DNA of 64,000 nt from Laetmonice hystrix (GCA_965235115.1 OZ249436.1:34908001-34972000); one strand, 5' to 3'. Counted from the first letter of the stretch, positions 27,195 through 64,000 are shown. Program-made: numbers and translations. The notes: a model not told the origin generated them from the sequence alone.

Positions 27195-29870
27195 TAGTCA
27201 GGGAATATTGCAAAAATCAGGGAACAAATTCCTTACCAAGAAATTTCTTCACCAATGTGTTGATAAAGGTGTCTACTAACATATGTCAAAAAGTTTAAAC
27301 TCAACTCCCCTAGGAGAACCCGTGACACCTGATGAAAGTTGGGGTACCCGGAACCCTATGCTCCATACGGACTAATTTGATTGTACACGTTACAGGGCGG
27401 TGTGACGTTAACTATGGGGCCCTATGGAAGCACAGGAACATGTATTACAAATTACAGATGTGTCCCTTACCCAGAGTGAGTAGTTGGTTGGGTCATAATG
27501 ATGGAAGAAACCCGCACACTGGAGTAACCCTTCACATAGATGTGTGGCGACATTTGATAAAGCAGTCACTCTTGGCAGCACTACTATGCAAGAATGTCCG
27601 TCGCCCGAGGCTCGAACTCAAAACCTTTGGTTCAAGGTCCTGCCCTCAACCCTCCTCCCCTCCCCTCCCGTATCCAGCGTAATTTGGGGACTAAATTATT
27701 TTTTCTTAACTCGGGTGCTTCAAAACGGTTCGCGGTTGGAATAATGAATCAATTCACATGGAAATTGTTGCAAAAACTAACTAGACATATTTGGCTTTTG
27801 TTCATAAATTTAATTATATTCAATGATTCTTTTTCATATGGCCATTTGAAACCTTCAAAAAAGTGTTTTAAAAATCTGAGGACTTGTGCCCTTTCTACCT
27901 AGCAGGGCATGCCACACAAAATCTTTTGCGATGATCAAAAACAGTACCCAGAATTATTCCCACGTCGTAAGGTCTCCGCAGAAGTGTTTCTTTTAGTGAA
28001 ACTCCCAAGAGTTATGAATACAGCAAGCTTTTTTTTTTGGCAATTTAACAGTTCTCGAAACTTTGATACAGCCAATTGCGATCTAAGCTCTGTCGGATCA
28101 GGGGCCTACAGTGATGCTAATTATACAGAGGTATTATAATGCTATAATTTTCTGAGCGTATCCACTGACCTTTGTAGTGTTTGCCTCCTTCACCGCAGGA
28201 AAGTATGGAACGAGATGCACATAAATATGGCACTCCAGTGTCTATCTTCAGTGTCGTGCCGTATTCATGTGCTAGGCATCTCGTTCCACACTTTCGCCCG
28301 GTGAAGGACCCTGTTCCGGCTAGATACGTCCGAACGGCTCGTTATGTCCAATAGGAGATATGTCCGCAAACATCAGCTAGGTGTGTCCGAAGAAATGGAT
28401 ATGTCCGCAAATATCAGCTAGATTTGTCTAGCTGACATTTGCGGACATATCCGGATTACCGGACATATCTAGCTTACATTTGCGGACATATCCAGATTAC
28501 CGGACACATTATATCAATATAATGCATTTCAATACAATGAACAGGTATTTTTGATTTTAAAAAATAGTTAGATACTCTATCTAGGCTTATATGTCACCAT
28601 GGTTACTTTTTTTGTTATAAGCCAAGGTTAAAGGGAAATAATGCCTGTGCAAAGCCTTAATTGCGTTTACCCTAGTGGCCCCCAGATTACGGTCAGGTGC
28701 ACTCAGATTAATAGCAACGTGCATTTTCTATAGACTACCCCACAAAAGTCAGCACGGTAACATAATATTTACTATAAGATATACCTTTTTAACATCAGAA
28801 ACACTTGTTCTTTCTATCAAAATATATAATATTGATATGCAGTGGGCTTGACTTAGTGTAGCACAGGACCTTAAAGCATAATTGAACGTTTTCATTTTTT
28901 TCTAGTTCCAGGTACCCCAACTTTAAGCAGCTGTCATGCCCCCCTTCCAGAATAAAAAGTTAAAAAATGGTCTCCAAATGGCAGTCTCTAGTGCATTCTG
29001 GGACCAAATAGTTGGTATTGAAAAGTGATTTGCCAAGTCAGCATCCTGAGGGCAGGTTGCTAGCATTGTACCCCGTGCCCTGAGGATGGTAAACTCCATT
29101 TTTCATTAACAATTAGTTAAAAAGTCCTGCAAAAAAGGGGAAGCGTCGCAATCGCCATCTATCAGATATGGCTAGATCTAGGCCTATATATAGGCCTAGG
29201 CCACTTGATGTGGACAGGCCCTTATAACCCTAGTTCATGACGCGTATAAGGGTCTATTTTGAGATAATTTGACTAGTTATGTGTGTTCAATTGCTGCAGA
29301 CACAAAGTAGGAGGGATAGGCCTAGCAGTAGGCATCAGTTTTAGGCCTATAGATTTATCATTCAGGCGGGTCCTACGGCTCTCGTCGCGGGTGAGCGCGC
29401 GGATTTTGGTGCCGGTTTGCGGGTCCCAGTAGTGTATCCAGGATTGGTCAGGTGGGGGGGGGGGGGGTCCTATTGATCACATTTCCATGTTATTGCCAGG
29501 GCACGGGAGGGGGTTCCGTGCGAGCCATCCCTTCCCCCCGGGTATGCCAAGTGGGTCCGACCCTCCAGATGCGGGTCACTCTGGGTAAGGGACACATCTG
29601 TAATTTGTAATACATGTTCCTGTGCTTCCATAGGGCCCCATAGTTAACGTCACACCGCCCTGTAACGTGTACAATCAAATTAGTCCGTATGGAGCACAGG
29701 GTTCCGGGTACCCCAACTTTCATCAGGTGTCACGGGTTCTCCTAGGGGAGTTGAGTATAAACTTTTTGACATATGTTAGTAGACACCTTTATCAACACAT
29801 TGGTGAAGAAATTTCTTGGTAAGGAATTTGTTCCCAGATTGCCCCGATTTCTCATAATATTCCCTGACTA
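27195..29870. mobile_element. Non-autonomous Academ-like element with about 285-bp TIRs, nested in the EnSpm-like element
   Basis: 27195-27478 is nearly the reverse complement of 29578-29870. Termini tagtcagggaatatt / aatattccctgacta; 3-bp TSD AAA on both sides. Confidence 0.8.
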
Positions 29871-32573: not shown

Positions 32574-34800
32574 TGTCACAGAAAGCTCACAGAAAGCTCA
32601 CAGTGTGACCTCACACTGTGAGAAGTTGTGACACCACTGACTACATCACCATGCACGAATTCACCATGCATGAACTCACAGCAACCTCATATTGTGACCT
32701 CTCAGGATGACCTCACAATGAACTCAAAGACCATGATGTCAGTAGCTAACGGATAGATCACAGTATGACCTCACAATGTGAGTTCCCTGTCAGGGCTGGA
32801 ATTTCCCACTCGTCCGGCTGCCCGAGACGAGTAAGTTTCGGTCCGGACGAGTAAGTCTAGCCCAGTATCTCGTCCGCCGGCCGAGTAACTATTTTGGTTA
32901 CTGTTGTTTAAAGGGGGTGACCTTTTGGCGGCTCAATCTTTCTCCAGTGCAGTAACAACAGCGGGGGTCATTTGGCTGGCTCAGCTGACCCCGGCCGTGT
33001 GTTTCAACTGGCCACCTGTGTGTCGCCAGAGTGCTCCTTTTGTTCACGTGTTTTTGTTTGTTCAGTGTGTGTCCTGAGTGGCTGTCGCAGCATCAGCGTG
33101 GCCCAGCTACACTAATCTCTGAGCCAGGTAATCTGCCGACATGCATCAACTGGAAACACGTGCCTCCCCCCACCAACCAGCATCGTCCCCAAAGCGCTGA
33201 TTGAATGATGAAAAAAGACGTGATCATGACAGGGACGCCTGTGGAATCAGCATGGCCGCAGGAGGCCAGACACAAGGCCTTATGGCCCACGTCATAAGGA
33301 ATTCAAAGTCCTGAAAACAACCCCTGTTCTTCTCTGGTGGAGACAAATAGCGACTTTTTTGGAAAACCTTGAGAGGGACTTTGACATGTGATTCAATTTG
33401 CTGTCCTGATTAACTGAAGCCCAAATCTGAAAAGCATTCAGTGGTCCATGAAGCCCATAGATCTATATGCTCAAGTTTATTGAACGTTTTTATGTATGAC
33501 AGAGGTATATGAGGCAAATAACTTGACTGGCTGGTAAATTACGACTGTTTAATTAAAGCATAATACTCATAGACCATGCCTATTATCTTAAATTCTCTCT
33601 GAAATCCGGGCAAGTAACTTTTGATCTGGGCAAGTAACTTTTGCAGGCTACTTGCCCGACGGGCAAGTAGCCTAAAATTTGAAATTCCAGCCCTGCCTGT
33701 GTCATCATAGTGAGGTAGTTTTTCGTGAAGTCACATCATGATAGAATTGTGACATCACTGTGATGCTTTGACAAATACATCACCAACAGGTCACAGAAAG
33801 CTCACGATATGACGTCAGAACTTGGTATGGTGAGAGCTCACCATAAGCTCACAGAAAGCTCACAGTGTGACCTCACACTGTGAGAAGTTGTGACACCACT
33901 GACTACATCACCATGAACTCACAGCAACCTCATATTGTGACCCCACAGGATGATCTCACTATGAACTCAAAGACCATGATGTCAGTTAGCTAACGGATAG
34001 ATCACACAATGTGAGTTCCCTGTGTCATCATAGTGAGGTAGTTTTTCGTGAAGTCACATCATGATAGAATTGTGACATCACTGTGATGCTTTGACAAATA
34101 CATCACCAACAGGTCACAGAAAGCTCACGATATGACTTCAGAACTTGGTATGGTGAGACCTCACCATAAGCTCACAGAAAGCTCACAGTGTGACCTCACA
34201 CTGTGAGAAGTTGTGACACCACTGACTACATCACCATGAACTCACAGCAACCTCATATTGTGACCTCACAGGATGATCTCACTATGAACTCAAAGACCAT
34301 GATGTCAGTTAGCTAACGGATAGATCACAGTATGACCTCACAATGTGAGTTCCCTGTGTCATTATATAGTGAGGTAGTTTTTCGTGAAGTCACATCATGA
34401 TAGAATTGTGACATCACTGTGATGCTTTGACAAATACATCACCAACAGGTCACAGAAAGCTCACGATATGACTTCAGAACTTGGTATGGTGAGACCTCAC
34501 CATAAGCTCACAGAAAGCTCACAGTGTGACCTCACACTGTGAGAAGTTGTGACACCACTGACTACATCACCATGAACTCACAGCAACCTCATATTGTGAC
34601 CTCACAGGATGATCTCACTATGAACTCAAAGACCATGATGTCAGTTAGCTAACGGATAGATCACAGTATGACCTCAAAATGTGAGTTCCCTGTGTCATCA
34701 CAGTGAGGTAGTTTTTCGTGAAGTCACATCATGGTAAAATTGTGACATCACTGTGATGTCAGTGTTAGGTCATCTTTATGATCTCATCCTGTGACTTTCA
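32574..34800. repeat. Tandem array, about 325-335-bp unit (right subterminal array of the EnSpm-like element), interrupted by a MITE
   Basis: The block containing gtgaggtagtttttcgtgaagtcacatcatg recurs at about 33700, 34022, 34357 and 34692; a partial unit lies at 32574-32790. Confidence 0.9.
32791..33695. mobile_element. hAT-like MITE with a 5-bp TSD
   Basis: Perfect 15-bp TIR cagggctggaatttc; TSD cctgt. Neighbouring repeat units show the empty site agttccctgtgtcatc. Subterminal ggacgagtaa / gggcaagtaa repeats. Confidence 0.8.
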
Positions 34801-35207
34801 GGTGAGCTCATTATGAGTATGGCATGAGCTCACGTCTTCACTGGGATGGCTGGCAAGGATAGGGGATGTCCATCCATTAGGCTACTTAACGCCTTTTGGG
34901 GGCTATTTTAAAGACCCCACCCCCTGTAATGACAAGATAAACGGCCCAAAAAGTGAAAGAAATATGGGATATCCCAGGGATGACGTCATTTTCATGGAAT
35001 TCCCTGGCGGCTGAGCCGCGCTGTTCGTAAAAAAAATCGAACACTGCTCGATTCTCTAGCCGGCCGGCTAGCCGCCTGGCGGCTAAACGCGCCAATGGAA
35101 ATGCTATCATTGCATGGATACTACTAGTTCGATTTTTTCGCAGCCGCCAGGCGGCTAGCCGGCCGGCTAGCCGGCCGGCTAAACCGCGTTAATGGAAAGG
35201 CACCCTT

Positions 35208-37635
35208 ACACTCGAACAAACAGTGAGGGCTCCCAACATGTACTGTTTGGCCTTATACTCGAGCACACACTACAGTGAAAGCTCCCCACATGTAGTGACT
35301 ATTTTCCCCCCATGTCCCATCGAGGGCTCCGCCAAAAATGAACAAATAAAAATGCCACAATATTGAAGGAAATAACGGTAGGCTACTGTCTGGCCTTATG
35401 CTCGAGCACACACTACAGTAATGGCTCTCTACATGTATTGACTGAGGTCAGACTTAAGCAAACACTACAGTGAGGGCTCCCTACATGTATTGACTGGCCT
35501 TATACCTGACCAAACACTACAGTGAGGGCTCCCAACATGTACTTTATGGCCTTATACTCGAGCATACATGTATTGACTGGGCTTATACTCGAGCAAACAC
35601 TACAGTGAGGGCTCTGCACATGTATTGGCTGGCCTTACACTCGAGCAAGCACTACAGTGAGGGCTCCTAACATGTACTGTCTGGCCTTATACTGGAGCAA
35701 ACACTACATTGAGGACTCCGCAGATGTACTGAGTAGCCTTATACTCGAGCAAACAATACGGTGAGGGCTCCCTACATGTATTAACTGGCCTTACACTCGA
35801 GCAAACACTACAGTGAGGGCTTTCAACAAGTACTTGGCCTTATACTCGAGCACACGCTACAGTGAGGGCCCCCCACATGTAGTGACTGGCCTTATACCTG
35901 AGCGCGTGTACACTACAGTGAGGGCTCCCTACATGTATTAACTGGCCTTACACTTGAGCAAACACTACAGTGAGGGCTTCCAATATGTACTTTCTGGCCT
36001 TATACTCGAGCACACACTACAGTGAGGGCTCTCCACATGTACTTTATGGCCTTATACTCGAGCATACACTACAGTGAAAACTCCCCACATGTAGTGACTG
36101 GCCTTATATTCGAGCAAACACTACAGTGAGGGCTCACCACATGTACTGAATAGCCTTATTATCTAGCAAACACTACAGTGAGGGCTCTCTACATGTATTG
36201 GCTGGCCTTAGATTGGAGCAACCACTACATTGAGGGCTCACTACATGTATTGTTTGGCTTTTGGAGCAAACACTACAGTGAGGGTTCCCTATATGTATTG
36301 ACTGCCCTTGGGCTAGAGGAAACACTACAGTGAGGGCTCCCTATATGTATTGACTGCCCTTCGGCTGGAGCGAACAGTACAGGAAGGATCCCTACATGTA
36401 TTGAGTGGCGTCAGACTCGGGCAAACACTACAGTGAGGACTCTCTAGATGTATTGAGCGGCCTAAGACTGGAGCAAACATTACAGTGAGGGTTGCCCACA
36501 TGGACTGACTGGCCTTATACCCGAGCAAACACTACAGTGAAGGCTCCCTACATATATTGAGTGGCGTCATACTCGAGCAAACACTACAATGAGGGCTCTC
36601 TACATGGATTGGCTGGTCTTATACTCGAGCAAACACTACAGTGAGGGCTCCCAAGATATACTGTCTGGCCTTATACTCGAGCAAACAATACAGTGAGGGC
36701 CCCCAACATGTACTGACTGGCCTGAAACTCGAGCAAACACTCCATTGAGGGCTCGGTACATGTATTGGCTGGATTTAGACTGGAGCAAACACTGCAGTGA
36801 TGGCTCCTTACATGTATTGACTGCCCTTGGGCTAGAGCAAATACTGAAGTGAGGGCTCCCTACATGTATTGACTGGCCATATACTCGAGCAAACACTACA
36901 GTGAAGGCTCCCTACATGTATTGAGTGGCGTCATACTCGAGCAAACACTACAGTGAGGGCTCTCTACATGTAATGACTGAGCTTAGACTGAAGCAAACAC
37001 TACAGTGAGGGCTCCGCACATGTACTTTCTGGCCTTATACTCGAGCAAACACTACAGTGAGGGTTCCCTACATGTATTGCCTGGCGCTTCGAGTAAACAC
37101 TACAGTGAGGGCTCCCTACATGTGTTGACCGGCCTTATACTCGAGATAATACTACAGTCAGTGTTCTGTACATGTATTGGATGGCCTTAGACTGGAGCAA
37201 ACACTGCAGTGAGGGCCCCTACATGTATTGACTGAGCTTAGACTAGAGAAAACACTACAGTGAGGGCTCCCGACATGTAGTGACTGGCCTTATACTCGAG
37301 CGAACACTACAGTTGAGGGCTCCCTGCATGTATTGACTGGCCTTATACTCGAGCAAACACCATAGTGACTGCTCTCTACATGTATTGGCTAGCCTTAGAC
37401 TGGAGCAAACACTACAGTGAGGGCTCACCACATGTACTGAATGACCTTATTCTCTAGCCAACACTACAGTGAGGGCTCTCTACATGTAGTGACTTGCCTT
37501 AGATTGGAGCAAACACTACAGTGAGGTCTCCCTATATGTATTGTCTGACCTTAGACTGGAGCAAACACTACAGTGAGGGTTCCCTATATATGTATTGACT
37601 GTTCTTCGGCTGGAGCAAACAGTACAGTGAGGGCT
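35208..37635 (+). repeat. Satellite, about 52-bp unit
   Basis: Consensus ctcgagcaaacactacagtgagggctccctacatgtattgactggccttata repeated head to tail over about 2.4 kb with point divergence. Confidence 0.95.
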
Positions 37636-39254
37636 TGTTCCCGCTAGATATGTCCGGCTAGAGAATCGAGCAGTGTTCGATTTTTTTACGACCCGCGCGG
37701 CTCAGCCGCGAGGGAATTCCATGAAAATGACGTCATCCCTGGGATACCCCAATATTTCTTTCGCTCTTTGGACCGTTTCTCTTGCCATTACAAGGGGTGG
37801 GTCTTTAAAATAGCCCCAAAAAGGCGATAAGTAATGGATGAACATCCCCTATCATTGCCAGCCATGGATAGTGAATGTTCATATGATCCATCGCCTAAAT
37901 AGTCGTTAATTTAGTTTGGCGTAGGCCTATTAGGCACTGAACTTCATGGAAATGCAACACGTGCTTTATTGTAGATCCTCTATCGGTAAAACAATGACCT
38001 GTTGCATCTATCACCAGTATTTGCTTAGCAGCTTGGTTCTGTGATGAGACTCTTCTTGTTGATAAGTGGACCGCTTATGCGTGAGGTCCACTTGGTCGCA
38101 TCTCGGCCGCATCTCATGCTGCATCTCACTTGCGGCCCGGCCTCAAGGACCTCAAGGACCTCAAGGACTGCAACACTTAGCTCCATCAGTGCAGCTAATG
38201 TGAGGCAGGGTTCTTGCAGTTTACACCATCCCCTTCATCTATAGTTCATTCTATGATAATTGTATATAATATCTTTTGAATTGATATTGCCAAATTTAAA
38301 CATCATACCTACAAGACAGGGTGCGAGGTGATTACACAGGCCTACTGGGTACAGATTCTGCATGTAATGAGATAGAAATTCAGGAGATATATTCTGATTT
38401 ATAGGTGCTTTTTTGACCCTTGGCAAAATTGATCGGCTTTTAAAAATAAATTTCAATGTTACCTCTGGGTTGTGTGTGTGTGGGGGGGGAGAGGGGTTAT
38501 GGGTGTGTGTGTGTGTGTGTGTGTCGGGATGCGTGTGTGTGTCTGGATGGGGGCGGATATAGGCGGGGCGGAGAAGGGTGTGTGTGTGTGTGGGGGGGGG
38601 GGGGTTAATTAAGGGTGTCTTCAGAATTTGTAGTCAAGTTTGAAAATTTTAAGTCAATGTTTAGGGGGTACTTTATCAGCATAGGTTAGCATTTACGGGG
38701 TACCTGTTTTGATAATCTTAGGTCTGTGGTTAGGGTACCAAATTAGGTCTGATGTCCACACATGATAGGAATGATAGCAAGTGGCCCTGGGCCCCCCTGG
38801 GAGAAATATTAAAAATAGCTTTTGTGCATAGAACTGTGACTGAAAATGTGAACCCTTTTGTTCTGTCAAGGTTTAAATCAGAGAGAGGCACATGGCCATA
38901 TTGACTTGCGGCGCCGCAATGTTCTTGCATCTATGCTGCAAGAGTTGCAAGAGGTACAAGCTGCACAATTCCTTGCGACAATATCTTTTTTTTTTATATT
39001 CTAGCGGCCGGCCGCTGGACGCTAGAAGCCCCATTGCGCCTCTTGCAGTTCTGGGGGTTTTATAGCTCCACTATCGCAAGGTTCTTCCGGCCTATCGGCC
39101 CCAACGACCGCAATGACGAAACGCAACGGCCGCAACTGCAAAAATGTGTAGTGGAGCTACCCTATTAGTATTAGCGGCAGCCGCTTCACAGCCGCGTTCA
39201 TGGAAAGATACGTGCTGGCAGGCTAGCCGGCCGGATAAACCGCGTCAGTGGAAA

Positions 39255-40050
39255 GGCCAGTCAATATATGTAGGGAGCCCTCACTGTAGTGTTTGCTTCA
39301 GTCTAACCTCAGTCAATACATGTAGAGAGCCATCACTAGTGTGTGCTCGAGTATAAGGCCAGACCGTACATGTAGGGAGCCCTCACTGTAGTGTTTGCTC
39401 GAGTATGACGCCACTCAATACATGTAGGGATCCTTCCCTGTACTGTTTGCTACAGCCGAAGGGCAGTCAATATATATAGGGAGCCCTCACTGTAGTGTTT
39501 GCTCCAGTCTTAGACCGGTCAATACATCTAGAGAGCCCTCACTGTAGTGATTGCTCGAGTATGACGCCACTCAATACATGATGTAGACAGTTCTGTAGGG
39601 ATCCTTCCCTGTACTGCTCCAGCCGAAGGGCAGTCAATAGATATAGGGAACCCTCACTGTAGTGTTTGCTCTAGCCCAAGGGCAGTCAATACATGTAGGG
39701 AGCCCTCACTGTAGTGTTTGCTCCAGTCTAGGGTCAGACAATATATGTAGGGAGACCTCACTGTAGTGTTTGCTCCAGCCCAAGGGTAGTCAATACATGT
39801 AGGGAGCTCTCACTGTAGTGTTTGCTCCAATCTAAAGCCAGCCAATACATGTAGAGAGCCCTCACTGTAGTGTTTGCTCCAGTCTAAGGCTAGCCATACA
39901 TGTAAACAGCCCTCACTATGGTGTTTGCTCGAGTATAAGGCCAGTCAGTACATGCAGGGAGCCCTCAACTGTAGTGTTTACTCGAGTATAAGGCCAGTCA
40001 CTACATGTGGGGAACCTGTAGTGCGTGCTCGAGTGTAAGGCCAGATAGTA
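39255..40050 (-). repeat. Inverted array of the same 52-bp satellite
   Basis: Reverse-complement units (agggagccctcactgtagtgtttgctc). Confidence 0.93.
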
Positions 40051-45112: not shown

Positions 45113-47203
45113 TCATCGGCTGCGCGGAGCGTCAAGTTCCACGTCCTCGTCACAGTGGGGTTGAATGCGGCTCAGATCCAGTTTGAGCACCTTTTTATAG
45201 GCCCGCGCTCGGTTGGATGAGTTCGCTGGCATTTTAACCGTCGTCTGGGCGGGGTCACCTTCTCCGGGCTGCTGGCACGAGCATGTCGTTGCAGAGTACG
45301 AGCCGCCGCAGTAAGTGGCGTGGGAGGCCCCGCAATCGATCTCTTGTATCGGGGAGTTCAGTGGAACCTCTTCTTCTTCCTGTGTACCGTAGCCAATATC
45401 CTCCAATGAATGCGATGATTCTCCTGGTGGCGTCGCCGAAATTTCATTTTGAGCAGGAACCGATTCTACTCCTGCCGCTGCGAGAAAAAACAAGTCTGTT
45501 CAGATTACAGGTATATTTCAGGAATAATTTTTGTCACTTCGTCAGAAAAAGGGGGCGCGCGCCCCCCTTGGATCGGCGCATTATCGTCCCAACCTCACCT
45601 GGCATGGGTTCTGGAAGAATCTGAGATAGCTGCGGTGACGGATCACTTCCTTCGTCATCTTGTCCCCTCTGTTGGCAACGCCAGAATTTGCGGACCAGGA
45701 AACCACAAATAACGAGGACCTATACAGGACACAAACGTACTATAGGTCGACATAAACCGTGCACACCCTCCCACCTATGTCATTAGCATATTATAATAAG
45801 AATATTGATCAAAATATAGGCCCATGTGTTACACCGTGATGTGACTCTATGCTACTGAGGAATGCCTCCTTGGGGATCAGAGCAGTTCGTATAAAAACCG
45901 ACCTGCTGGTGAGGGGTAGACGGAGTATCGTCCCAGTATACACACGGCCTATGTGAGAGGCTAGTGAGGGGAAGTGTCGAATCGCAGATCTACGCCGCAC
46001 AGATCTATGGAATTGGATCCTTTCAGTTTTTCTCACTGGCCCTGTCCAGTCCTCCGCAGCTGGGTCAGTTTAAAGGCTAGGCCTATAAGGCGGGCAAAAG
46101 AAGCCTTGCCATGTTTCGAAAAGAGAATAGGGAGTGCCTCCCAGTGGTATAGGTCGGTTTCCTTCTCAGTTCATCCCCCTGACTCGGGAGTCCAAATACA
46201 ATGGGTCCCTTCGGCTTGAGGGAATAAAACTCACCAGCAGGACACTGACGCAGATGCCAAACTTATATAATTCTTGGTTTGTCCAGTCCGGGGTGGGGGT
46301 GGTGCGCCAAGCCGAGGTCAGTCGATCGACACTTGTAGTCGTCTCCGAGAACCCTAAAAAAGGGCATGTTCTGCATGGTAGGCAGTGTTTGAAATCACGA
46401 CTTTACGCTATGATAGGCAGTGTTTGAAATCACGACTTTACGCTATGGTAGGCAGTGTTTGAAATCACGACCTTTACGCTGTAGTAGGCAGTGTTTGAAA
46501 TCAGGACTATGATAGGCAGTGTTTGAAATCCCGACTTTACGCTATGGTAGGCAGTGTTTGAATTAAATCACGACTTTTCGCTATGGTAGGCAGTGTTTGA
46601 AATCCCGACTTTACGCTATGGTAGGCAGTGTTTGAATTAAATCACGACTTTTCGCTATGGTAGGCAGTGTTTGAAATGACGACTTTACGCTATGGTAGGC
46701 AGTGTTTGAAATGACGACTTTACGCTATGGTAGGCAGTGTTTGAAATCACGACTTTACGCTCCGAGTGAGCAAGCCATGAAGTCAGTTCCAGGGGTGGAC
46801 TAACGTCAGCACCGTAATGACAGCTGCCTGGGGGGGGGGGGGGGGGGGGGGGCTGTAGTAGGCAGTGTTTGAAATCAGGACTATGATAGGCAGTGTTTGA
46901 AATCCCGACTTTACGCTATGGTAGGCAGTGTTTGAATTAAATCACGACTTTTCGCTATGGTAGGCAGTGTTTGAAATCCCGACTTTACGCTATGGTAGGC
47001 AGTGTTTGAATTAAATCACGACTTTTCGCTATGGTAGGCAGTGTTTGAAATGACGACTTTACGCTATGGTAGGCAGTGTTTGAAATGACGACTTTACGCT
47101 ATGGTAGGCAGTGTTTGAAATCACGACTTTACGCTCCGAGTGAGCAAGCCATGAAGTCAGTTCCAGGGGTGGACTAACGTCAGCACCGTAATGACAGCTG
47201 CCT

Positions 47204-47235
<32 letters not shown>

Positions 47236-47501
47236 TAAGAGAGCGCTGGTGAGATGGCCGGACGTAGATCTAATCAAGAGGTTTTCTCTTGATAAGGAGA
47301 AACATGAAATCACCCTAGAGGGTGCCGGTACTAAGTAGGCCTAACACAGCTGTTGATTCTAAATTAATACTTATTGTGGCAGTATAGGCCTACATGTAGG
47401 CCTATAGTATATTAAAGGAATATAAATACGTGTGCATGTATAGGTAGGCCTATTAAAAGCAAACTGTTCAAACTGTCAATAAGGAGGGCGGGAGGAAACA
47501 A

Positions 47502-47537
<36 letters not shown>

Positions 47538-47802
47538 AAAAAAGAAAAGGAAAGAGAAAGAAAGAACCCCAAAACCAAATCGTTCGCCCGAATGATGCAG
47601 ATGACATAAAATAGTTAGGATTTTTTAAAGCACATATAGTAGGCCTACATTTTGCTTAAAATTTCCACCTACCTGGGCATTCTCTGCTGCACTCGCCGTT
47701 GAGGACGTTCGTGGATCCCGGCACACAGAGATCTCTGCACGGGGCACACCGATCCATAGGACCGTCCCAATACTCGTGTGGTTGGCACACGACCGGCGCC
47801 AT
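45113..47802 (-). CDS. TNF-receptor-superfamily-like protein with a single BCMA/TACI-type cysteine-rich domain and no signal peptide (type III), 244 aa, 4 exons
   Basis: Exons 47802-47673, 46353-46235, 45719-45599, 45477-45113; GT..AG introns in phases 1, 0, 1. Exon 1 = MAPVVCQPHEYWDGPMDRCAPCRDLCVPGSTNVLNGECSRECP (6 Cys, CxxxEYWDxxxxxCxxCxxxC). Then a Thr-rich stalk, TM FGICVSVLLVLVICGFLV followed by RK, and a tail with TQEE, PIQE and PAQTT. Confidence 0.85.
46376..47234. repeat. 35-bp minisatellite with a 375-bp higher-order duplication, in intron 1 of the TNFR-like gene
   Basis: Unit ggtaggcagtgtttgaaatcacgactttacgctat. The block at about 46478-46852, ending in poly-G, is repeated at about 46853-47234. 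Confidence 0.93.
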
Positions 47803-49392
47803 TCCTGCCGCCCACGCAGTCTCCAGCGGCCAGTAATCCTCTTACAAATGTATGCCGTGAGCATTAATCAAGGTTCTACAGCAGCGCACCTAGTATGCTG
47901 TCCTAAAAACGTGGGATTTCCCACAAGACGGTAGTACCAGTTCACTCCGCCAGGGGGCTGACTGTAGCGGTCACCACAGGAGCTCTATTAGTGCTATATA
48001 ACAGTCAACAAACATGCTATAACACAGTCATGCTGTTAGTAAACACTAGCCAATAGACCTCGAACGGGCGCGGCTCATATGGGCACCCTGCTGACCAATG
48101 TTCACATTAGTCAGTGGCGTAGGAAAAGGGGGCGGGGGGCATGCCTCCGACCTATAAGCTAAAGAAATGGGGTGGGGGGGGTGGGGGGGGGGGGGTATAG
48201 ACATCCCATAGTACTTAGTGCACTATATCCCGACTGATGTCTTCCGGGGATTGCCCATCTTGAGTTGTTAAGGGGCATGGGTGTTTGATGGGACTGTGAA
48301 GGTCTATCGTATTACGTTGTCCCATAAGTACAAACTTGTAGGTACTTCACAATTTAAAATTCCTTTGAAATTCCTTCGCTTCAGTGAAATTCATTCCCTT
48401 CACAGTGCAATACTTTAGCTTCCTAGTGAAATTTCTTGTCATCACAAACAATTATTCCTTCACTTCACACTGAAATTCCTTCGCTTCACATTGTAAATCG
48501 AACTGTGAATCTGTTTGGCGTATCTGACTTCTATGTTTTCTAGGCATGTAACGTCCGTTTGGCCAGAATACGGTTGTGCTTATATAAATTGCATGAACAC
48601 TATAGAAGTGATTTTTCTGGACTAAGTAAACACTGTAGAACCTCTTCATCAACGCCTGTAGATTCCTTCATAATAAAGCACACAATATCTACCCTCATTA
48701 TCACATTAAAAATATATGGATGTAGGCCTATCTAGGAGCTATTACACCGGTTTAGGCCCCTATATCAAGAAGTTTTGCCCCAACTGTAGGCCAATAAATA
48801 ATCTGGCTATAGTGCGCGTTCACATAGTCAGCCACTTGGGTTCACGTAACTCCTACCACGTATTTCGTACGCCAACAGGTCAGAATTGATATATCGGGTG
48901 GATAAAAAAAAACGCCCCGAACTTTAAACTTCAATATGTCAAAGAGTAATGATTGTAATTCAATGACATTTTTCGTAATATCACTTCATGATGTTGTCTC
49001 TTAGTTAGTAATGTTACAACTCAATAGCTTGGATAATATTTCCGTGGGGCTAAAAACAAAAATCATTGTACAAAAGCGCAATGCCGGGCTAAAGTGAGTT
49101 GTAGTCGCACCCAGAGTCCCTGGCCTCACACTAGAGTAGGTGGTCATTTCAAACGTAGATCTAATCAAGAGGTTTTCTCTTGATAAGGAGAAACATGAAA
49201 TCACCCTAGAGGGTGCCGGTACTAAGTAGGCCTAACACAGCTGTTGATTCTAAATTAATACTTATTGTGGCAGTATAGGCCTACATGTAGGCCTATAGTA
49301 TATTAAAGGAATATAAATACGTGTGCATGTATAGGTAGGCCTATTAAAAGCAAACTGTTCAAACTGTCAATAAGGAGGGCGGGAGGAAACAA

Positions 49393-49428
<36 letters not shown>

Positions 49429-51039
49429 AAAAAAGAAAAGGAAAGAGAAAGAAAGAACCCCAAAACCAAATCGTTCGCCCGAATGATGCAGATGACATAA
49501 AATAGTTAGGATTTTTTAAAGCACATATAGTAGGCCTACATTTTGCTTAAAATTTCCACCTACCTGGGCATTCTCTGCTGCACTCGCCGTTGAGGACGTT
49601 CGTGGATCCCGGCACACAGAGATCTCTGCACGGGGCACACCGATCCATAGGACCGTCCCAATACTCGTGTGGTTGGCACACGACCGGCGCCATTCCTGCC
49701 GCCCACGCAGTCTCCAGCGGCCAGTAATCCTCTTACAAATGTATGCCGTGAGCATTAATCAAGGTTCTACAGCAGCGCACCTAGTATGCTGTCCTAAAAA
49801 CGTGGGATTTCCCACAAGACGGTAGTACCAGTTCACTCCGCCAGGGGGCTGACTGTAGCGGTCACCACAGGAGCTCTATTAGTGCTATATAACAGTCAAC
49901 AAACATGCTATAACACAGTCATGCTGTTAGTAAACACTAGCCAATAGACCTCGAACGGGCGCGGCTCATATGGGCACCCTGCTGACCAATGTTCACATTA
50001 GTCAGTGGCGTAGGAAAAGGGGGCGGGGGGCATGCCTCCGACCTATAAGCTAAAGAAATGGGGTGGGGGGGGTGGGGGGGGGGGGGGGTATAGACATCCC
50101 ATAGTACTTAGTGCACTATATCCCGACTGATGTCTTCCGGGGATTGCCCATCTTGAGTTGTTAAGGGGCATGGGTGTTTGATGGGACTGTGAAGGTCTAT
50201 CGTATTACGTTGTCCCATAAGTACAAACTTGTAGGTACTTCACAATTTAAAATTCCTTTGAAATTCCTTCGCTTCAGTGAAATTCATTCCCTTCACAGTG
50301 CAATACTTTAGCTTCCTAGTGAAATTTCTTGTCATCACAAACAATTATTCCTTCACTTCACACTGAAATTCCTTCGCTTCACATTGTAAATCGAACTGTG
50401 AATCTGTTTGGCGTATCTGACTTCTATGTTTTCTAGGCATGTAACGTCCGTTTGGCCAGAATACGGTTGTGCTTATATAAATTGCATGAACACTATAGAA
50501 GTGATTTTTCTGGACTAAGTAAACACTGTAGAACCTCTTCATCAACGCCTGTAGATTCCTTCATAATAAAGCACACAATATCTACCCTCATTATCACATT
50601 AAAAATATATGGATGTAGGCCTATCTAGGAGCTATTACACCGGTTTAGGCCCCTATATCAAGAAGTTTTGCCCCAACTGTAGGCCAATAAATAATCTGGC
50701 TATAGTGCGCGTTCACATAGTCAGCCACTTGGGTTCACGTAACTCCTACCACGTATTTCGTACGCCAACAGGTCAGAATTGATATATCGGGTGGATAAAA
50801 AAAAACGCCCCGAACTTTAAACTTCAATATGTCAAAGAGTAATGATTGTAATTCAATGACATTTTTCGTAATATCACTTCATGATGTTGTCTCTTAGTTA
50901 GTAATGTTACAACTCAATAGCTTGGATAATATTTCCGTGGGGCTAAAAACAAAAATCATTGTACAAAAGCGCAATGCCGGGCTAAAGTGAGTTGTAGTCG
51001 CACCCAGAGTCCCTGGCCTCACACTAGAGTAGGTGGTCA
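47262..51039. repeat. Near-identical 1.89-kb tandem duplication
   Basis: 47262-49146 matches 49153-51039, separated by the 6-nt spacer tttcaa. The only visible differences are homopolymer and microsatellite lengths. Confidence 0.95.
49564..49693 (-). CDS. Second identical copy of exon 1 (CRD exon) of the TNFR-like gene
   Basis: Same 130-nt ATG..CCAG|gtaggt exon, offset 1891 bp from 47673-47802. Confidence 0.75.
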
Positions 51040-51641
51040 ATCGGTCCCCCGTTTTCACTCCATACTGTTCTCAGTCTCTTTTTCCATGAGCCAATGCACT
51101 TCCTGATCTCTGATAGGGAAATATCTTCCCAACATTGGGAAATACGCAACGTTCTGAATGTGTTGCTAAACGTGATAATGATACGATTTCCCTTGAACTT
51201 CTCGTTACATTCATATCGTACTAATGTTGCAGTTTCTGTGTAGGGTTTGGCACATTAAACATCTGTTTTTCTCTAAAAGTATTAGGAATACCACATAATC
51301 TATTATAGCTAGTGGTCCACAACATGATACATATTGTAAAACATGCAAAAACTAAATATTGATTTTTTTTTACCAAGGTACAATGCGGTGCATCAAACAG
51401 GTGTCAAATTGGACACCTGGCAGCTGCATGATATTTGACCTAATTCCGGCATTGCGTTTTTAGACACTGATTTTTGTCTTTAGTGCCACGGGATTATTAT
51501 CAAGGCTATTGAGCCGAAACTTTAACATACCAGAGATAATATCATGAAGTGATATTAAGAGAAATTTTATTGAATTGTAATGCATAGTTTTTGAAATATT
51601 AAAGTTTAAATTTCGGGGCGTTTTTTTTTATCCACCCGATA
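50785..51641 (-). mobile_element. Internally deleted Tc1/mariner element
   Basis: Termini tatcgggtggataaaaaaaaacgccccgaa and reverse complement, with imperfect inverted similarity over about 200 bp; TA flanks. A truncated copy of the left end lies at 48892-49146. Confidence 0.8.
51024..51149 (-). pseudogene. C-terminal remnant of a Tc1/mariner transposase
   Basis: Translates to LRISQCWEDISLSEIRKCIGSWKKRLRTVWSENGGPIDHLL*, matching the usual W..I....I...I..W.KRL..V...NGG.IEH ending of these transposases. Confidence 0.75.
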
Positions 51642-53476
51642 TAACTCCTACATTACATTCCGTAAGAGTTATTCTCAGGTAAGAATACATTTACAGGAGT
51701 TCCCAACGCGCGTTCACTTACTATGTTTCGCCACAGTGCCAGTGGCATCTCAAAAGCCTCACCTCACCACTAATCTTAGACATCTTGTCAAGAACGCCTC
51801 GCGCGCATCATCATAATTTTACTGTGAAGAAAAGGAATTGTTTGTATAGTACAGCAGTTTGTACTTCTGGGCCACCGTACTCGCTCTTATTTCCTAGACA
51901 CCTATTGAGTGAGAGTTTGCTGGCCCAACGTCTCCGTCAGGGCGGGCGGGCGGGTCCTGATTAAAAGATTTTATGAGCCAGCTACATGAAAAAAAGGCGG
52001 GGCTATAACATTTTTTTAAACCGTTAAATTTTATTACTAAAATTCATAAATTAACAAGACGTTGCGGCAATAGATAAAAACACTGTAAATTTGACTTCAC
52101 TGGAGCAGTTTGGCCTGCCGTGAACAGACTTAGGTCATATGTGCTCCAGTCGGAAGGGGAAATGTTCAATACATGTGTACAATGTAACATTGTCATTTTT
52201 TATCTGGTGCGTGCGTCAGTAGAATATCCCTTTACAGTCGTGTAGATTCATTTTAACGTTGCTATTTGTGTATGCGTTTATAGTGATCTATATACTTAGA
52301 TATTAACAAAGTGCACATCACTTACTGACTTACTGAGATCACAATGATGACCTTCGAAAGGTCCTGTCTCGCGGTCTATACCCCCGCCAGGCCAGTGCTT
52401 TCCACCTGGACACGACAATGGAATACATTATTTTCAAGGCCGTCACTTTTTTTCTATCGAATCAGTGATGGGCGTTTCAGCCACCAAACGGACACACAGA
52501 AAATTACAAGCAGAAAGCACCGACTGACGGGAAGGTTTGGCCGGAACACCGGTGGCTTCAGGGCAGGTGACGCTGTCTCAGATCTCCGCAGTCTCACATC
52601 TCCGGGAGAATAGCAACATAACCGGTAGTATTTGTAAAAGTTTTGGGCGAAGTATTTGATATAACAGGTCTCCTCTGCGATATTTGGTCAAACACTTGCC
52701 TATCAAGGCTGTCGTTTATTCTTGATTAGAAGAAAACGCCACCACCCCTCAGCTAGCAGACGCCTGGATGTGTGAGACCAAATAGTGACATACAGCTTCT
52801 AAACAATGCAATCTAAACCATGCTCCCGGAGATCTGAGACCGGCGGAGATGGGAGTACGCGACACCGGTGACCAATGTTTCAGGTATACAAGTATCAGGA
52901 CGGACCGCCTTGAGCAGGTGACAAGGTGGGGGTCAGTGTCTCACCGGGGTATACAACGTGACAGACATCAACCGAGGAATTGGGTTGGGGGGCGGTAGGT
53001 CTGAATTCTGGGCGTCAATCGGTCCAACCCCCAATCACACATCGCTCTGCAGCATTGTCTATAGTGAACCAGGCGAGGATAGTTTAATACAGGGAATGTT
53101 CAATGTCGCAACCCTAAAACTAAATCATTAAATAGTTCAAGAAGAACATGATTAATGTCTGACGAAAGTCTACTACCTTTCCGGTCCAGTGTGAAACTCG
53201 GAAAATAAAAGGCCACTCCACGTACAGTAAAAACTTCACTCTATCGGCTCATGCTAAGTTTTAGGTGATTAAGCGGAAATTGAAGTTGATGTTAGACTAT
53301 AAACACTGACAGCAAGGTTATATAATTGATTCACAAATCTACGCCCCTTCATGAGTAATCACAACAGGCAGATACAAACATGTGCATGTTGGTGGCGGAA
53401 ACACCGGCTTCGAGAGAGTAATAACTATCTAACTCTCATAGTCTTGATATGATTCTTTTGGGCAGAAGATCTATAA

Positions 53477-55565
53477 CTAGCGCCGATGTGGCCAAGGCCA
53501 ACATCTTATATCCCATCCCCCATAAATGAACAATGAGAGGCCCATTATGATGTTAGATGTGTCTTTACATTATCGATATTGGAGTTAATCGAAAATCACT
53601 GTCACCTAATATAAGGCTTGAATAGTAACCATAGATCTCTCTGGCCACGTTTCAGAGTTATAGCTGTTGAAATAATATTGGTGATCTATCAATGACGTCA
53701 TTATGACGTAATACGTCTACCTACGTCATCAGTATTACTGTCAATCGAAGGAGCATCTATGACTTTCTATATGACCTAAATAGTAACCATAGCTCTATCT
53801 CACTTAGTTTCAGAGTTACAGCAATGTGTATCTGCAATAGTCAATTTTAACAACTTCAAGGTCACGTAGTTCTGCTAAAATAGGTCAAATTGCTTATTAG
53901 TGAAGTTTTCCAGTAAAGCTGCCCACAGGAAGCCTGTCATCTAAAAATTGTCTGATTTTCTCCAAAAATGGTGGAGCAGTAGCGATTTCACCACTTTGGA
54001 GCATGTGACCTACTTTTACATGACGTCAGAGGATATAGGTCAAAATAATGGACATAAGTAAGCAGGGTCTATGCAAGATTATTATTCTCTGAAAAGTTTT
54101 AGGAAACTATGGAATATGGTTTGAAGAAATGCCTCTAAGTTTAAAATACAAATTACGTCATGACGTCATGAGGTGACGTCATATGACGTAATGATTATAT
54201 GGGTCGGTTTTCTCTACCCTGGTGAATGTCCCTGCCAAGATTCATTTGGATATCTCTATAAATGACTGAGATAGCGTATCTATGACGTCATTATGACGTA
54301 ATACGTCAGCCTACGTCATCGGTATATGTGTCAATTGAAAGAGCATCTATGACTTCCTATATGACCTCAATAGTAACCATGGCTCTATCTGGCTTTATTT
54401 TAGAGTTAGAGCAATGTGCATCTGCAATAGTGAATTTTCACAAATTCAAGGTCACGTGTTTCTGCCAAAACAGGTCAAATCGCTTATTGGTGAAGTTTTC
54501 CAGTAAAGCCGCCTACAGAGATCCTGTCAACCCAAAATTGTCAGATTTTATTTAAAAATGGCGGAGCAGTAGCGGTTTGACCACTTTCGGATGTGTGACC
54601 TACTTTTCCATGACATCAAAGGTCAAAGGTCAAAATCATAAGGTCTACTAAAAACGGTCTATGCCCGATTATTAGGCTGTGAAAAGTTTTGGGAAACTAT
54701 GGATTATGGCTTCAAGAAATGACTATAAGTCTAAAATGCAAAATACGTCATGACGTCATAACGTAACGTCATATGACGTAATAATTATATAGGTCGATTC
54801 TCTCTACCATGGTGAATGTCCCTGCCAAGTTTCATATGGATATCTCTATAAATGACTGAGATAGTATATCTATGACGTCATTATGACGTAATACGTCACC
54901 CTACGTCATGGGTATATGTGTCAATTGAAAGAGCATCTATGACTTCCTATACGACTTCAATAGTAACCATGGCTCTATCTCGCTTTATTTTAGAGTTACA
55001 GCAATGTGCATCTGCAATTGTGAATTTTAACAACTTCAAGGTCACGTGGCTCTGCCAAATTAGGTCAGATCGCTTATTGGTGAAGTTTTCCAGTAAAGCT
55101 GGCTAGAGAGAGCCTGTCAACCCAAAATTGTCAGATTTTATCTAAAAATGGCGGAGCAGTAGCGGTTTGGCCACTTTCGGACGTGTGACCTACTTTTTCA
55201 TGACATCAAAGGTCAAAGGTCAAAATCATGAGGATTACTAAAAAGGGTCAATGCCCGATTACTAGGCTATGAAAGGTTTTGGGAAACTATGGATTATAGC
55301 TTCAAGAAATGCCTATAAGTCTAAAATGCAAAATACGTCATGACGTCATGACGTGACGTCATATGACGTAATAATTACATGGGTCGATTCTCTCTACCAT
55401 GGTGAATGTCCCTGCCAAGTTTCATTTGGATATCGTTAAAAATGACTGAGATGGACGCACAAATGCAACTACTACAACTACTACTACTACGGGAATAATA
55501 ATACGGAAGACGAAACCATACAACTATAAAATCCCATCCCCCATGGGGGGGATGGGATAATAAAA
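53477..55565 (-). mobile_element. Helentron-associated interspersed element (HINE/DINE-1-like) with about 3 tandem 590-bp units
   Basis: Read on the minus strand: T-rich start, subTIR tatcccatcccc within a palindrome (55531-55559), a (gta)n microsatellite (55467-55490), tandem units (marker at 53691, 54281, 54872), the partner subTIR (53509-53520), a hairpin (53485-53505), then a terminal CTAG followed by TT. Confidence 0.75.
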
Positions 55566-60570: not shown

Positions 60571-60906
60571 CTGGGCTCTGATCGGTCAAGCTTTGTCGGT
60601 CTGTAGGCCTATGTATAGGTCAAACTAGTAGCCTACCTTGTTGTGTGTGAGTGGGGGGGGGGGGGGGGCGGGAGGGGGCATAATAATTTGGACATAATAA
60701 TATCCATCAGCGTCGAAATTGCAACTTTTATATAAATTTTGTAAATGGTTAATGTTAACTAATGTTAACAGGCATGACGTCCTAACATGTGTTATTAAAT
60801 ATAATTATTGAAATTCCAATTCAATCATGCTTTCCATATATTGCAGGGCCCTCGGGCAGCTGTTGGTGGTGATCGCTTCTCGATCGTAACTGGATGAACG
60901 AGAATC

Positions 60907-62452
60907 ATGGCTTCGGTAAACTATACTAATGAGTGTGATCGTGATGAAGATGGTTCTTTAGTAAAGCGAGCAAGCCGAAGGACAGTAAACCCTGATAGCA
61001 AGGTTTGTCTGGTATGCCAGACTAGAAAGTACGACAAAGAAAACAAAAGGCTTCTACCCTTGACCCAATGCATGACCTTTGAAGCTGGCAAGAAGCTACT
61101 TCAGGCTGCAGAAACGAGACAGGACTTTCGAATCCTTGGTGAAATTTCAAACAAAGATCCCATTGCAATGGAAATCTGCTACCACCATAGATGCTACGTA
61201 AACTATATCAGGAAAAGGCCTTCAGAGAATTTGCTCCAGACTGAATATGATGACTCATATGAACTTATAGTAGATGAAGTAAGAAAAAATGTTCTTATTG
61301 ACCACAAAACAATGCAAATGAATACTCTCGTAGAGCACTTCAAAAACCATCTTTCAGAACGAGGAAAAGAAGCACCAGCCTACAAATCCCAGAAGTTAAA
61401 GAAACGCCTCCTTAGGACCTTTGGAGACAGGCTGTCCTTCTGGCAACCAAGGCGCAGAAATGAATCTGAGATTTTGTTCCCGTCAGATGTTCCAAAAGGA
61501 CAGCTTGCTGAAGCAGGATGCTACATAACAGAAGATGTCATGCCTGTGAAAAACTTTGAACATGCTGAGAAACCTACTACATGTACTGCAAACTCCAGCC
61601 CCCCAAGTCAGTCTGATCTTTACCATGTGGCAAAGTACATTCGCACGGAACTGAAGAAGATAAAGGGCCAAGTGCCAGACCCACCTTCAGCTGAGACGTT
61701 AACATTCGCTCATGCACAAATACCACAAAATGTGTATAACTTCTTGGTCTGGGTGATGTCTGGTGAAACAGATGAGGATGAAGTTTCAGCTGATTCAGCG
61801 TCAACGAAAGAAGCCCTGTACAGAAGAGTGATGTCAGTTGGTCAAGATCTACTGTATAACGTGTCTAGAGGAAGGGTCAAAACACCTAAGCATGTGTCCC
61901 TTGCTATGACAGTCAAGAACCTGACAGGAAGCTCTCAAGTGGTGTCAATGCTGAACAGATTTGGACACACAGTGTCTTACAATGAATTACTTGACCTCGA
62001 GTCTTCAATTGCATTAAAACATACTCAAAGGGAGACAGGGGGAGTCATTATTCCAAGTAACATCAATCCACATGTTTTCACAAGCTTCTGTTGGGACAAT
62101 ATTGATCTCAACGAACAGACCTTAAGTGGAAGTAACACCACTCACTGCACGAACGGGATCCTTGTTCAACGCCGTGTTCACACATGCGAGCCCGCAACAG
62201 GTCAACAAGAAGGAAGTCAGCTGCAGATGGAGACAACTGCTGAGGTCCCTGGTTTCATGCCATATATTCACAGAGCTAGAAAGGGCCCAGGAATACTGAA
62301 TGTTGACTTCCAAATATGCTCAAGTCTGAAGGAAGCTTTCAGTAAACCAAAAGAGATAGATTTTGCCTGGTTCCTGCTAAGACTACCCGTGAAATCTGGC
62401 AACCTCTTCACTGTCTCTTCGCCTCTTGATGATCAGCAGCAAATGATTCCAG
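60907..62452 (+). CDS. Academ transposase, first coding exon
   Basis: Motifs CLVCQ...DPIAMEICYHHRCY, YKSQKLKKRL, GQDLLYNVSRGRVKTPKHVSLAMTV..LTGS, LNRFGHTVSY and WDNIDLNEQTLSG..TTHCTNGI. Donor CCAG|gtgtgt at 62453, phase 1. Confidence 0.82.
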
Positions 62453-62763
62453 GTGTGTTCTCTTCCTTCTAGTTCCTTGGAGGGCCCCCTACAGTTATTT
62501 TCTCGTGAATATACTGTGCATTGTTACTCTCACCTATGGATGAAGGTTGCTTAATTATCAGTCTATCCAGTAACCCAGCATATTACTGATGGTTTCCTTA
62601 ATTCCAATCCTACAATAAGAAATAATGGAATTATTAAGTACAACTGTAGATAATTGCCATGAATACACACATTATGCTTGTCCAATGGAGGGGCAGCTAT
62701 GTAGAACAAAGAATAAGTTTCATGTCCCACGAATATCTTCGAACAGAACAGACTTTTAACTAA

Positions 62764-63078
62764 GGGGCTGGTTCCTCAGTCGTGAAAGGCCTAAGTACTA
62801 CTATTACTTAGGCAAGAAATCATCCAAAAACGTTACTTAAGTTAACCGTTCCTCATTCGCGCTAAGATGTGCTGAGCCTATCTTAACCATTACTTGCCTA
62901 AGTCAGGTGCGGAGGTTACCAAACAGTCACCGGGTGCAGAGCTGACCGGCACCATGAGCAAAGCGGCCCGCGTGACTCTTTCGACGACTGAGGAACCTAT
63001 TTTGGGGAATGAGCACTGCCCAGCTTACTTGTTACTCAGCCAAGTCGTACTTAGGCGCACGACTGAGGAACCGGCCCC
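62764..63078. mobile_element. MITE inside the Academ transposase intron
   Basis: 21-bp TIR ggggctggttcctcagtcgtg / cacgactgaggaaccggcccc (1 mismatch), extending imperfectly inward. No clean TSD. Confidence 0.7.
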
Positions 63079-63117
63079 TGGTCTATAATCGGATGTTAAT
63101 AAAATCTCTTATTTCAG

Positions 63118-64000
63118 GCTGGAGTCCATTTAATGCTCGGGTACAGCATAACCAAAGTGTGCCAACATCCAATGTGGGATACTGCCAGACTATTGATTCA
63201 AGTCCAACAGAACTAAGCACAGTACATACAATCTTGCAACGGTCACTGGTCATGGGCAATCAGCTCGGACAGGAAGACGTCGTGGTGGTCATGGATCAGG
63301 CCATTTATTGCAAAGCCAAGCAAATCATTTGGTCAGCGCCTGGTGATTACAGAAGGGTTGTTCTCCGTATGGGAGCTTTCCACATTGCATGCAACTTTCT
63401 TGGAATTCTAGGGCAGCGTTTTGGTGAAGCAGGCTTGCGGGATCTGCTAATCGAAAATGGCGTTGTGGCAGCTGGATCCATTGGATGCGTACTGAATGGA
63501 CACCAATACAATAGAGCAGTTAGGGCCAACAAGGCAGTCTATGAAGCACTGCTGAGGATCAAGTGGTCAGACTTCGGATCCTGGTTGGCTGCGAATCCTG
63601 ACATTCCATTTGACCAAGAAGCACTTTGTACCCTTCTGGGGACATTTCAAGATGGCTTCTCATCTGAGGAGATTAAAGATCTGCTTGATTCCCCAAATTT
63701 CAAGCATGCGCTAGCAGCTTACAAGAGGTACACAGCTACTGATCGCGGACCAATGGCTGCCTTCTGGGAATCCTACCTCACTATGTTTCAGCTCTTCCTT
63801 AACTTCATCAGATCTACAAGAGAAGGAAACTGGGCCCTCCACAAAGCATGCCTCCGGAACATGCTTCCTTGGATGTTTGCATATGACCACACTAACTATG
63901 CGAGGTACCTGACTGTCTACCTCTGGGATATGTTGCAACTTCGGGAAGCTCATCCCATAGCTGATGAATATATGAATCAGGGCGAATTTGCTGTGCAGCG
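63118..64000 (+). CDS. Academ transposase, second coding exon (open to the window edge, absent from the ORF track)
   Basis: Acceptor tttcag|GC restores IPGWSPFN. The frame then has no stop and reads SPTELSTVHTIL, VVVMDQAIYCKA, VLRMGAFHI, VLNGHQYNRAVR, REGNWALH, FAYDHTNYARY, GEFAVQ. Confidence 0.85.

Follow-up and report, generated by a model that had tools for sequence, protein, structure and literature searches.

Receptors with a single CRD that resemble Drosophila Grindelwald (grnd-like receptors) and have a CxxCxxxC core are reported to be widespread among invertebrates and to have undergone expansion in annelids (bioRxiv 10.1101/2024.07.27.603686), including the annelid Capitella teleta (bioRxiv 10.1101/2024.07.27.603686; PMC8024323). 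An Asp-x-Leu motif at the tip of a hairpin is present in BCMA (TNFRSF17) and TACI (TNFRSF13B) and is given as absent in Grindelwald (PMC8024323). Human TACI occurs with one or two CRDs through skipping of its internal exon 2, which lies behind a short exon 1, and the long form, with its extra CRD on the internal exon, is reported to bind ligand less well than the short form (PMC6176016).

Rules have also been described for the transcripts of rearranged genes and for the repair events that rearrange them. In human tumors, a first exon that lies downstream of a donor is mostly bypassed, the donor being joined to exon 2 instead, and tandem-duplicated internal exons are predictably reused in transcripts (PMC4987284); hybrid exons, serving as first or as internal exons, are reported to be common in humans (bioRxiv 10.1101/2021.05.27.446076). 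In worms, templated insertions are presented as a hallmark of polymerase theta, tandem duplications of at least 1 kb are reported to depend on this polymerase in repair mutants, and G4 motifs are described as causing replication breaks (PMC7368036, PMC8654963). Here we describe a 64,000-nt stretch of the Laetmonice hystrix assembly (GCA_965235115.1, OZ249436.1:34908001-34972000; hereafter the window, with positions counted from its first letter), in which the CRD exon of a predicted receptor gene is part of a tandem duplication.

A predicted single-CRD receptor gene

Four minus-strand exons with canonical GT-AG ends can be joined into one open frame of 244 residues, a gene model built from splice signals and the open frame. 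The coding part of exon A (47673..47802; 43 codons plus 1 nt) opens with an ATG at 47802, encodes one six-cysteine CRD, and ends at a phase 1 donor (CAG/GTAGGT) after 47673; a distal copy with an identical 130-nt coding part lies at 49564..49693, also on the minus strand. Exon B (46235..46353) would encode a Thr-rich stalk and the first half of a transmembrane helix, exon C (45599..45719), which has a weak match to RELT (E 0.091), the second half of the helix with basic stop-transfer residues, and exon D (45113..45477) the cytoplasmic tail and the stop codon. The CRD cysteines are at residues 6, 19, 22, 26, 38, and 42, giving a single CRD with the CxxCxxxC signature, and the modelled splice form has one transmembrane helix C-terminal to it (residues 74-92, mean hydropathy 2.65) with basic residues directly following. 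TRAF-binding motifs have a PxQE-type form, and candidates of this type are found in the cytoplasmic tail at residues 155 and 166.

The exon A donor is supported by a contig from X4, one of the four sequencing runs described below. This contig, record 24 with 346 letters, matches 49563-49689 and exits the genome exactly at the donor, and 218 of its letters are not listed on the compared stretch 49095-53600; one contig leaving at a donor also suggests that X4 is RNA. Record 24 carries a T at 49681, a base that belongs to a second allele and is found in neither tandem copy, and it is therefore uninformative on the duplicated haplotype. It ends at 49689, before the ATG is reached, and these presence-only data have no X4 depth at 49246-49547 or at 49699-50000.

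No second CRD gene was found within the window, and none of the 155 phase 1 ATG..GT candidates upstream of exon A makes a convincing signal-peptide exon; six of them that fit loosely were set aside because of low hydrophobicity, a weak donor, or a position within repeats. Between 44 and 54 kb, CpG observed/expected ratios vary from 0.46 to 1.04 without a maximum at exon A, and do not locate the promoter. We note that for the neighboring galactosyltransferase the first named matches are Tribolium (rank 21) and the annelid Lamellibrachia (rank 25).

BCMA accounts for eight of the nine matches of the CRD to PDB sequences (E 0.21-0.64), and the Pfam match to PF09257 (BCMA-Tall_bind; E 0.02) scores 15.4 bits against a cut-off of 27; PF09305 (TACI) is not among the Pfam matches listed for the CRD, and the Atlas gives TACI-CRD2 at 0.93. 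With a single-sequence model of the CRD (pLDDT 74.8, pTM 0.40), the top 10 Foldseek rows are all BCMA, albeit with weak scores (E 0.5-2.3). Structure comparison with the same model, also weak, returns a Z of at least 2 for just two of 48161 chains, Grindelwald (6ZSY; Z 2.1, rmsd 3.6, 36 aligned) and BCMA (Z 2.0), a near tie. Aligned to BCMA, the CRD has Asp-Gly-Pro in the place of Asp-x-Leu. Word-index searches, which are weak evidence on this point, found no homologue of the CRD or of the cytoplasmic exon. The best matches of the domain, each of them weak, all belong to the BCMA/TACI/Grindelwald type. The receptor is probably TNF-receptor-like with the Grindelwald/BCMA fold, and its missing DxL motif and its score below the Pfam cut-off place it outside BCMA and TACI.

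The predicted receptor shares with Grindelwald (Drosophila; PDB 6ZSY) and the grnd-like receptors a CxxCxxxC core in its only CRD, a single transmembrane helix, and a hairpin tip without DxL. It is unlike grnd-like receptors in that neither a signal-peptide exon nor a sequence orthologue was found here; toward the binding of an Eiger/TNF ligand and a TRAF, which would be expected of a grnd-like receptor, the sequence offers only the PxQE-like motifs. With BCMA and TACI it has in common a six-cysteine CRD that can be aligned to BCMA and no apparent signal peptide, but it differs from them in the low Pfam score, in the Asp-Gly-Pro, and in its invertebrate host; moreover, the start codon lies within the duplicated exon, in contrast to the internal exon 2 of human TACI. 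The original prediction raised, as speculative, a two-CRD (TACI-like) isoform of a one-CRD (BCMA-like) gene, a comparison that we would keep as an analogy only, given the annelid host, a CRD without the DxL tip, and the single-CRD Grindelwald-like receptors already known in annelids.

Tandem duplication of exon A and its upstream DNA

Self-BLAST and global alignment identify two direct head-to-tail copies, a proximal one at 47262..49146 (1885 nt) and a distal one at 49153..51039 (1887 nt), with a 6-nt insert, TTTCAA, at the junction between them (49147..49152). They have no substitutions, and differ solely in the length of a G run, where the distal copy is 2 nt longer and the alignment has its single gap; zero changes in 1885 sites place a 95% upper bound of ~0.16% on their divergence. 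The copies are adjacent and near-identical with a defined junction, and the duplication is far beyond chance. Of the unit, 411 nt belong to intron 1 and 130 nt are the coding part of the CRD exon; the remaining 1344 nt lie upstream, in agreement with the earlier description of exon 1 plus about 1.3 kb upstream as present twice with essentially no substitutions. The label "exon 1" is an assumption about the 5' end of the transcript. Among the paper titles listed, none concerns this locus; a kilobase tandem duplication with a legible repair scar is a clean case of an ordinary, known process.

The distal breakpoint falls 252 nt inside a MITE-like high-copy element of ~0.85 kb (50788..51638) that has perfect terminal inverted repeats of 27-32 nt and ~200-nt arms at 81%, and the proximal copy of the unit has only the left part of this element (48895-49146). 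This dates the insertion of the element before the duplication, so that an order of events can be inferred: MITE first, duplication later. The proximal breakpoint lies 27 nt from a plus-strand tract of 31 G residues (G31; 47204..47234), the longest of the 20 G or C runs of at least 12 in the window. A second perfect tandem duplication is present in the assembled sequence (46478..47226; 375 nt identical at an offset of 374) and ends in the G tract.

Read-derived contigs and a second allele

Four sequencing runs (X1 to X4) cover the region, all from one sample that is possibly the source of the assembly, and they are not independent individuals. They were compared as assembled contigs over 49095-53600. 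The original prediction proposed a search for the junction at 49146-49153 in long reads or by PCR, and the junction is found in read-derived sequence from this one sample: X2 record 9, from contigs built separately from reads, equals 49119-49370 (252 nt, with 0 other letters) and crosses it. This contig extends 34 letters to the left of 49153 and only 28 to the left of 49147, the latter three letters below the bridging criterion; its left-hand letters are within the high-copy element. X1 record 1 fits from 49153 only and is preceded by 50 other letters; it does not display the junction, and such a start after foreign letters is what is expected at the proximal border. Among the 32 pieces listed (28953 more are unlisted), none from X1 or X3 contains the junction.

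The same runs contain a second allele, which differs at 49681 (C>T), 49974 (G>A), 50048 (A>G), and 50210 (T>G), has a 213-nt replacement at 50466-50680, and joins 50783 to 51639 in X1 and X3, omitting an 855-nt element, so that the MITE-like element is missing from it. The second allele shows 4 differences within 219 nt and 2 within 174 nt. None of the allelic differences is carried by the tandem copies, which therefore do not represent a pair of haplotypes strung together in assembly; haplotype concatenation is rejected. The duplication is a copy-number variant of one haplotype that arose after the alleles had diverged, and we infer that it is heterozygous. The view that it is real and very recent is upheld by the junction-crossing contig together with the distinct second allele.

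Contig depths, which do not equal copy numbers, were expressed relative to one exact-match flank contig taken as single-copy. On this scale X2 contigs have depths of 3.06, 0.97, 0.99, 1.98, and 1.97, and five of the six listed X2 contigs that lie in or enter the unit fit two plus one copies, a weak indication; over all runs, 3 of 13 contig depths fit poorly, namely those of X2 record 9 (1.31) and X1 records 1 and 2 (1.19 and 1.79).

Predicted transcripts and proteins

The reading that we favor, and consider reasonably probable, is that this is a young tandem copy-number variant of the first coding exon and its upstream DNA that leaves the same one-CRD protein. A transcript started at either copy would join a single exon A to exon B and encode the same 244-aa receptor, with the promoter presumably within the duplicated unit and the downstream copy of exon A presumably skipped, and any effect of the duplication would be on expression level. 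The one-CRD versus two-CRD outcome turns on exon A being first or internal, and its status as a first exon is favored because no convincing upstream coding exon is seen. The configuration is like that addressed by the transcript rules for rearrangements, in that an upstream donor meets a second exon copy and the acceptor decides the outcome, although those rules, as described, concern human tumors (PMC4987284) and this is an annelid germ line. Of the earlier suggestion of alternative first exons, the duplicated first coding exon is plausible, but the copies are identical and no change in the protein would follow.

Two candidate minus-strand acceptors lie just upstream of the proximal ATG, at 47840..47842 (the -38 site, an AAG) and at 47804..47806 (the -2 site, a CAG). 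Both had been described as phase 1 compatible with the distal donor and free of stops, and this is confirmed for exons starting at 47804 and 47840: with the distal donor, the -2 and -38 AGs give open two-CRD frames of 288 and 300 aa, respectively. They had also been called weak. This is correct for the -2 site, which is very weak, with a purine-rich tract (7/20 pyrimidines) and three further AGs within the preceding 50 nt. The -38 site has more in its favor than that description suggests: it would define a 168-nt exon, is preceded by branch-like TTGAT and TTAAT motifs at 28 and 24 nt upstream, and has 12/20 pyrimidines, compared with 12, 12, and 13 at the gene's real acceptors (12 at exons B and C), and one AG in the preceding 50 nt. 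Its longest pyrimidine run is 3, those at the three real acceptors being 9, 4, and 9, and a run like that of two of these three is missing from both candidate sites. An open phase 1 AG is present within 60 nt of 597 of the 1222 minus-strand ATGs in the window, and the in-frame compatibility of the two AGs is therefore at chance level. An out-of-frame ATG at 47864 lies upstream of the exon A ATG; together with the branch-like motifs before the -38 site, it makes it possible that exon A is internal, or that its leader is spliced or very short. Neither the -2 nor the -38 joint with the exon A donor is among the 15 joints listed (24 are unlisted), an absence that carries no weight in presence-only contigs.

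If exon A were internal, or a hybrid exon with a working -38 (or -2) acceptor, the distal donor would splice into the proximal copy and the product would be a 300-aa (or 288-aa) receptor with two identical CRDs. We regard this as unlikely, and hold the same of the narrower claim that the duplicated haplotype makes such a receptor through the -38 acceptor. In its favor, both frames are open, the -38 site combines its branch-like motifs and pyrimidine content with a strong donor at the end of the 168-nt exon, and splicing there would take out the upstream out-of-frame ATG; the reported reuse of duplicated internal exons (PMC4987284) and frequency of hybrid first/internal exons in humans (bioRxiv 10.1101/2021.05.27.446076) point the same way. 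Against this, comparable AGs accompany about half of all the ATGs (the 597 of 1222 above), the -38 site is an AAG with a short pyrimidine run and the -2 site is purine-rich, no convincing candidate for an upstream coding exon exists, and first exons are reported to be usually skipped (PMC4987284). Were it true, the change from one to two CRDs that sets TACI apart from BCMA in architecture would be seen in an invertebrate TNF receptor while the allele still segregates, and the ancestral one-CRD allele, on the homologous chromosome of this animal, would serve as an internal control. CRD-CRD transcripts, if they exist, would lend the locus more weight, as TNF receptors normally show a change in domain number only after it is complete, as a difference from one gene to another; the two alleles could be compared within one species for splicing, ligand binding, and signaling. 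Given the weaker ligand binding of the TACI long form, an added CRD would not necessarily be an advantage.

A damaged allele is somewhat less likely still than a two-CRD receptor. It could arise if exon A were internal with an out-of-frame acceptor, inclusion of both copies then truncating the protein and leading to decay of the transcript, or if transcription from the distal promoter silenced the proximal one. Six of the eight AGs within 100 nt of the ATG do give frames of only 45-128 aa from the distal donor, and the single listed X4 contig that covers exon A has the base of the second allele; but that base sits 9 letters from the end of the contig, contigs drop alternative alleles so that allele imbalance is unreadable from X4, and no upstream exon is identified. 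The explanation that we consider least likely, and very improbable, is that the duplication is an artifact of assembly or library, either two haplotypes placed one after the other or a chimeric molecule. The almost perfect identity of the copies would suit an artifact, all runs derive from one sample, and the junction is seen in just one of the three deeper runs among the 32 pieces listed (28953 unlisted). However, the junction words are present in a contig assembled separately from reads, the copies are the same at all sites where the second allele varies, and the junction insert appears to be templated (see below), as no assembler would invent. We therefore retain the young copy-number variant encoding an unchanged one-CRD receptor as the preferred account.

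Possible origin of the junction

The 12-mer at 49143-49154, which consists of the insert with 4 nt to its left and 2 nt to its right, is the reverse complement of a unit variant of a 35-nt minisatellite in intron 1 (46375..47135), the probable template of the insert. This variant has four nearby occurrences, the nearest at 47078-47089, 173 nt from the proximal breakpoint, and the microhomology between junction and template is thus 4 and 2 bases. Within the local 4.6 kb, 10 of the 4096 possible inserts would match a template equally well; over the whole window the number is 140 of 4096, which is less striking. The match points to an insert templated from an inverted minisatellite unit, through templated end-joining or template switching.

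A plausible course of events would start with a break or stalled fork between the G31 tract and the fold-back MITE, with repair by local re-synthesis closed by templated end-joining (of the polymerase theta type) or by a microhomology template switch. The nascent end would leave the unit at GTCA, be extended by a few bases in the reverse direction on the neighboring minisatellite, and then re-enter at the opposite end of the unit. Switching of the MMBIR/FoSTeS type suits the junction scar equally well. Polymerase theta may be the enzyme, and both tandem duplications may have arisen in a single event.

Several features are like those of polymerase theta products, namely a head-to-tail kilobase duplication, a short insert copied from nearby with microhomology, and a G4-type tract beside one breakpoint. 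Unlike the worm cases, this is a natural variant in a wild-type animal, and the template is inverted and lies 173 nt away, farther than the "immediate vicinity" given for the worm insertions (PMC7368036, PMC8654963). The window is repeat-rich in general, with two other near-perfect tandem repeats of >300 nt.

Sequences neighboring the receptor-gene duplication

Within the intron-1 minisatellite, an array of 35-nt units, we found another perfect tandem duplication of 375 nt (positions 46478 to 47226). It terminates in the G31 tract, which lies 27 nt from the main breakpoint (the proximal border of the receptor-gene duplication), and the two duplications may be products of one event. Because of the minisatellite array, numerous AGs precede the exon B acceptor. 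On the minus strand, the final unit runs in frame into exon B (46375 to 46340) and encodes a Cys-x-x-Cys peptide, whose loose likeness to a CRD hairpin is probably due to chance.

The second allele changes codon 5 of the CRD exon from Val to Met (position 49681, equivalent to 47790 in the proximal copy). A high-copy MITE-like element occupies 50788 to 51638 and is lacking from contigs of two separate runs on one sample (X1 and X3). Where the element is missing, the sequence is TATATA, compatible either with a 4-nt ATAT target duplication, or with a TA-type element plus an excision footprint. Positions 52065 to 52412, which precede the distal ATG by approximately 2.4 kb, are covered by contigs of X4, inferred to be RNA, with second-allele letters and depths of 37 and 8.9; the segment may represent an upstream exon, part of a different transcript, or a repeat.

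Other coding frames and repeats

A single-exon galactosyltransferase (7047 to 8525, plus strand; PF01762, E 5e-42) is 66% identical to its best-matching relative. Two long open frames, of 246 aa (12289 to 13026, plus strand) and 342 aa (15978 to 17003, minus strand; with a hydrophobic segment resembling a membrane helix), have no Pfam match. Large transposon-like frames of 524 and 341 aa (60898 to 63998, plus strand; weak DUF6589 match, E 0.093) are broken up by DNA resembling introns or insertions. At 27215 to 29840, 2.1 kb is flanked by 265-nt inverted repeats (99% identity), a structure like that of a young DNA transposon. Further tandem arrays lie at 33696 to 34758, 35204 to 37635, 39253 to 40050, and 53644 to 55538, and among these are a 323- to 336-nt unit with almost identical copies, a 52-nt satellite in both orientations, and a 590-nt unit present three times (85 to 89% identity).
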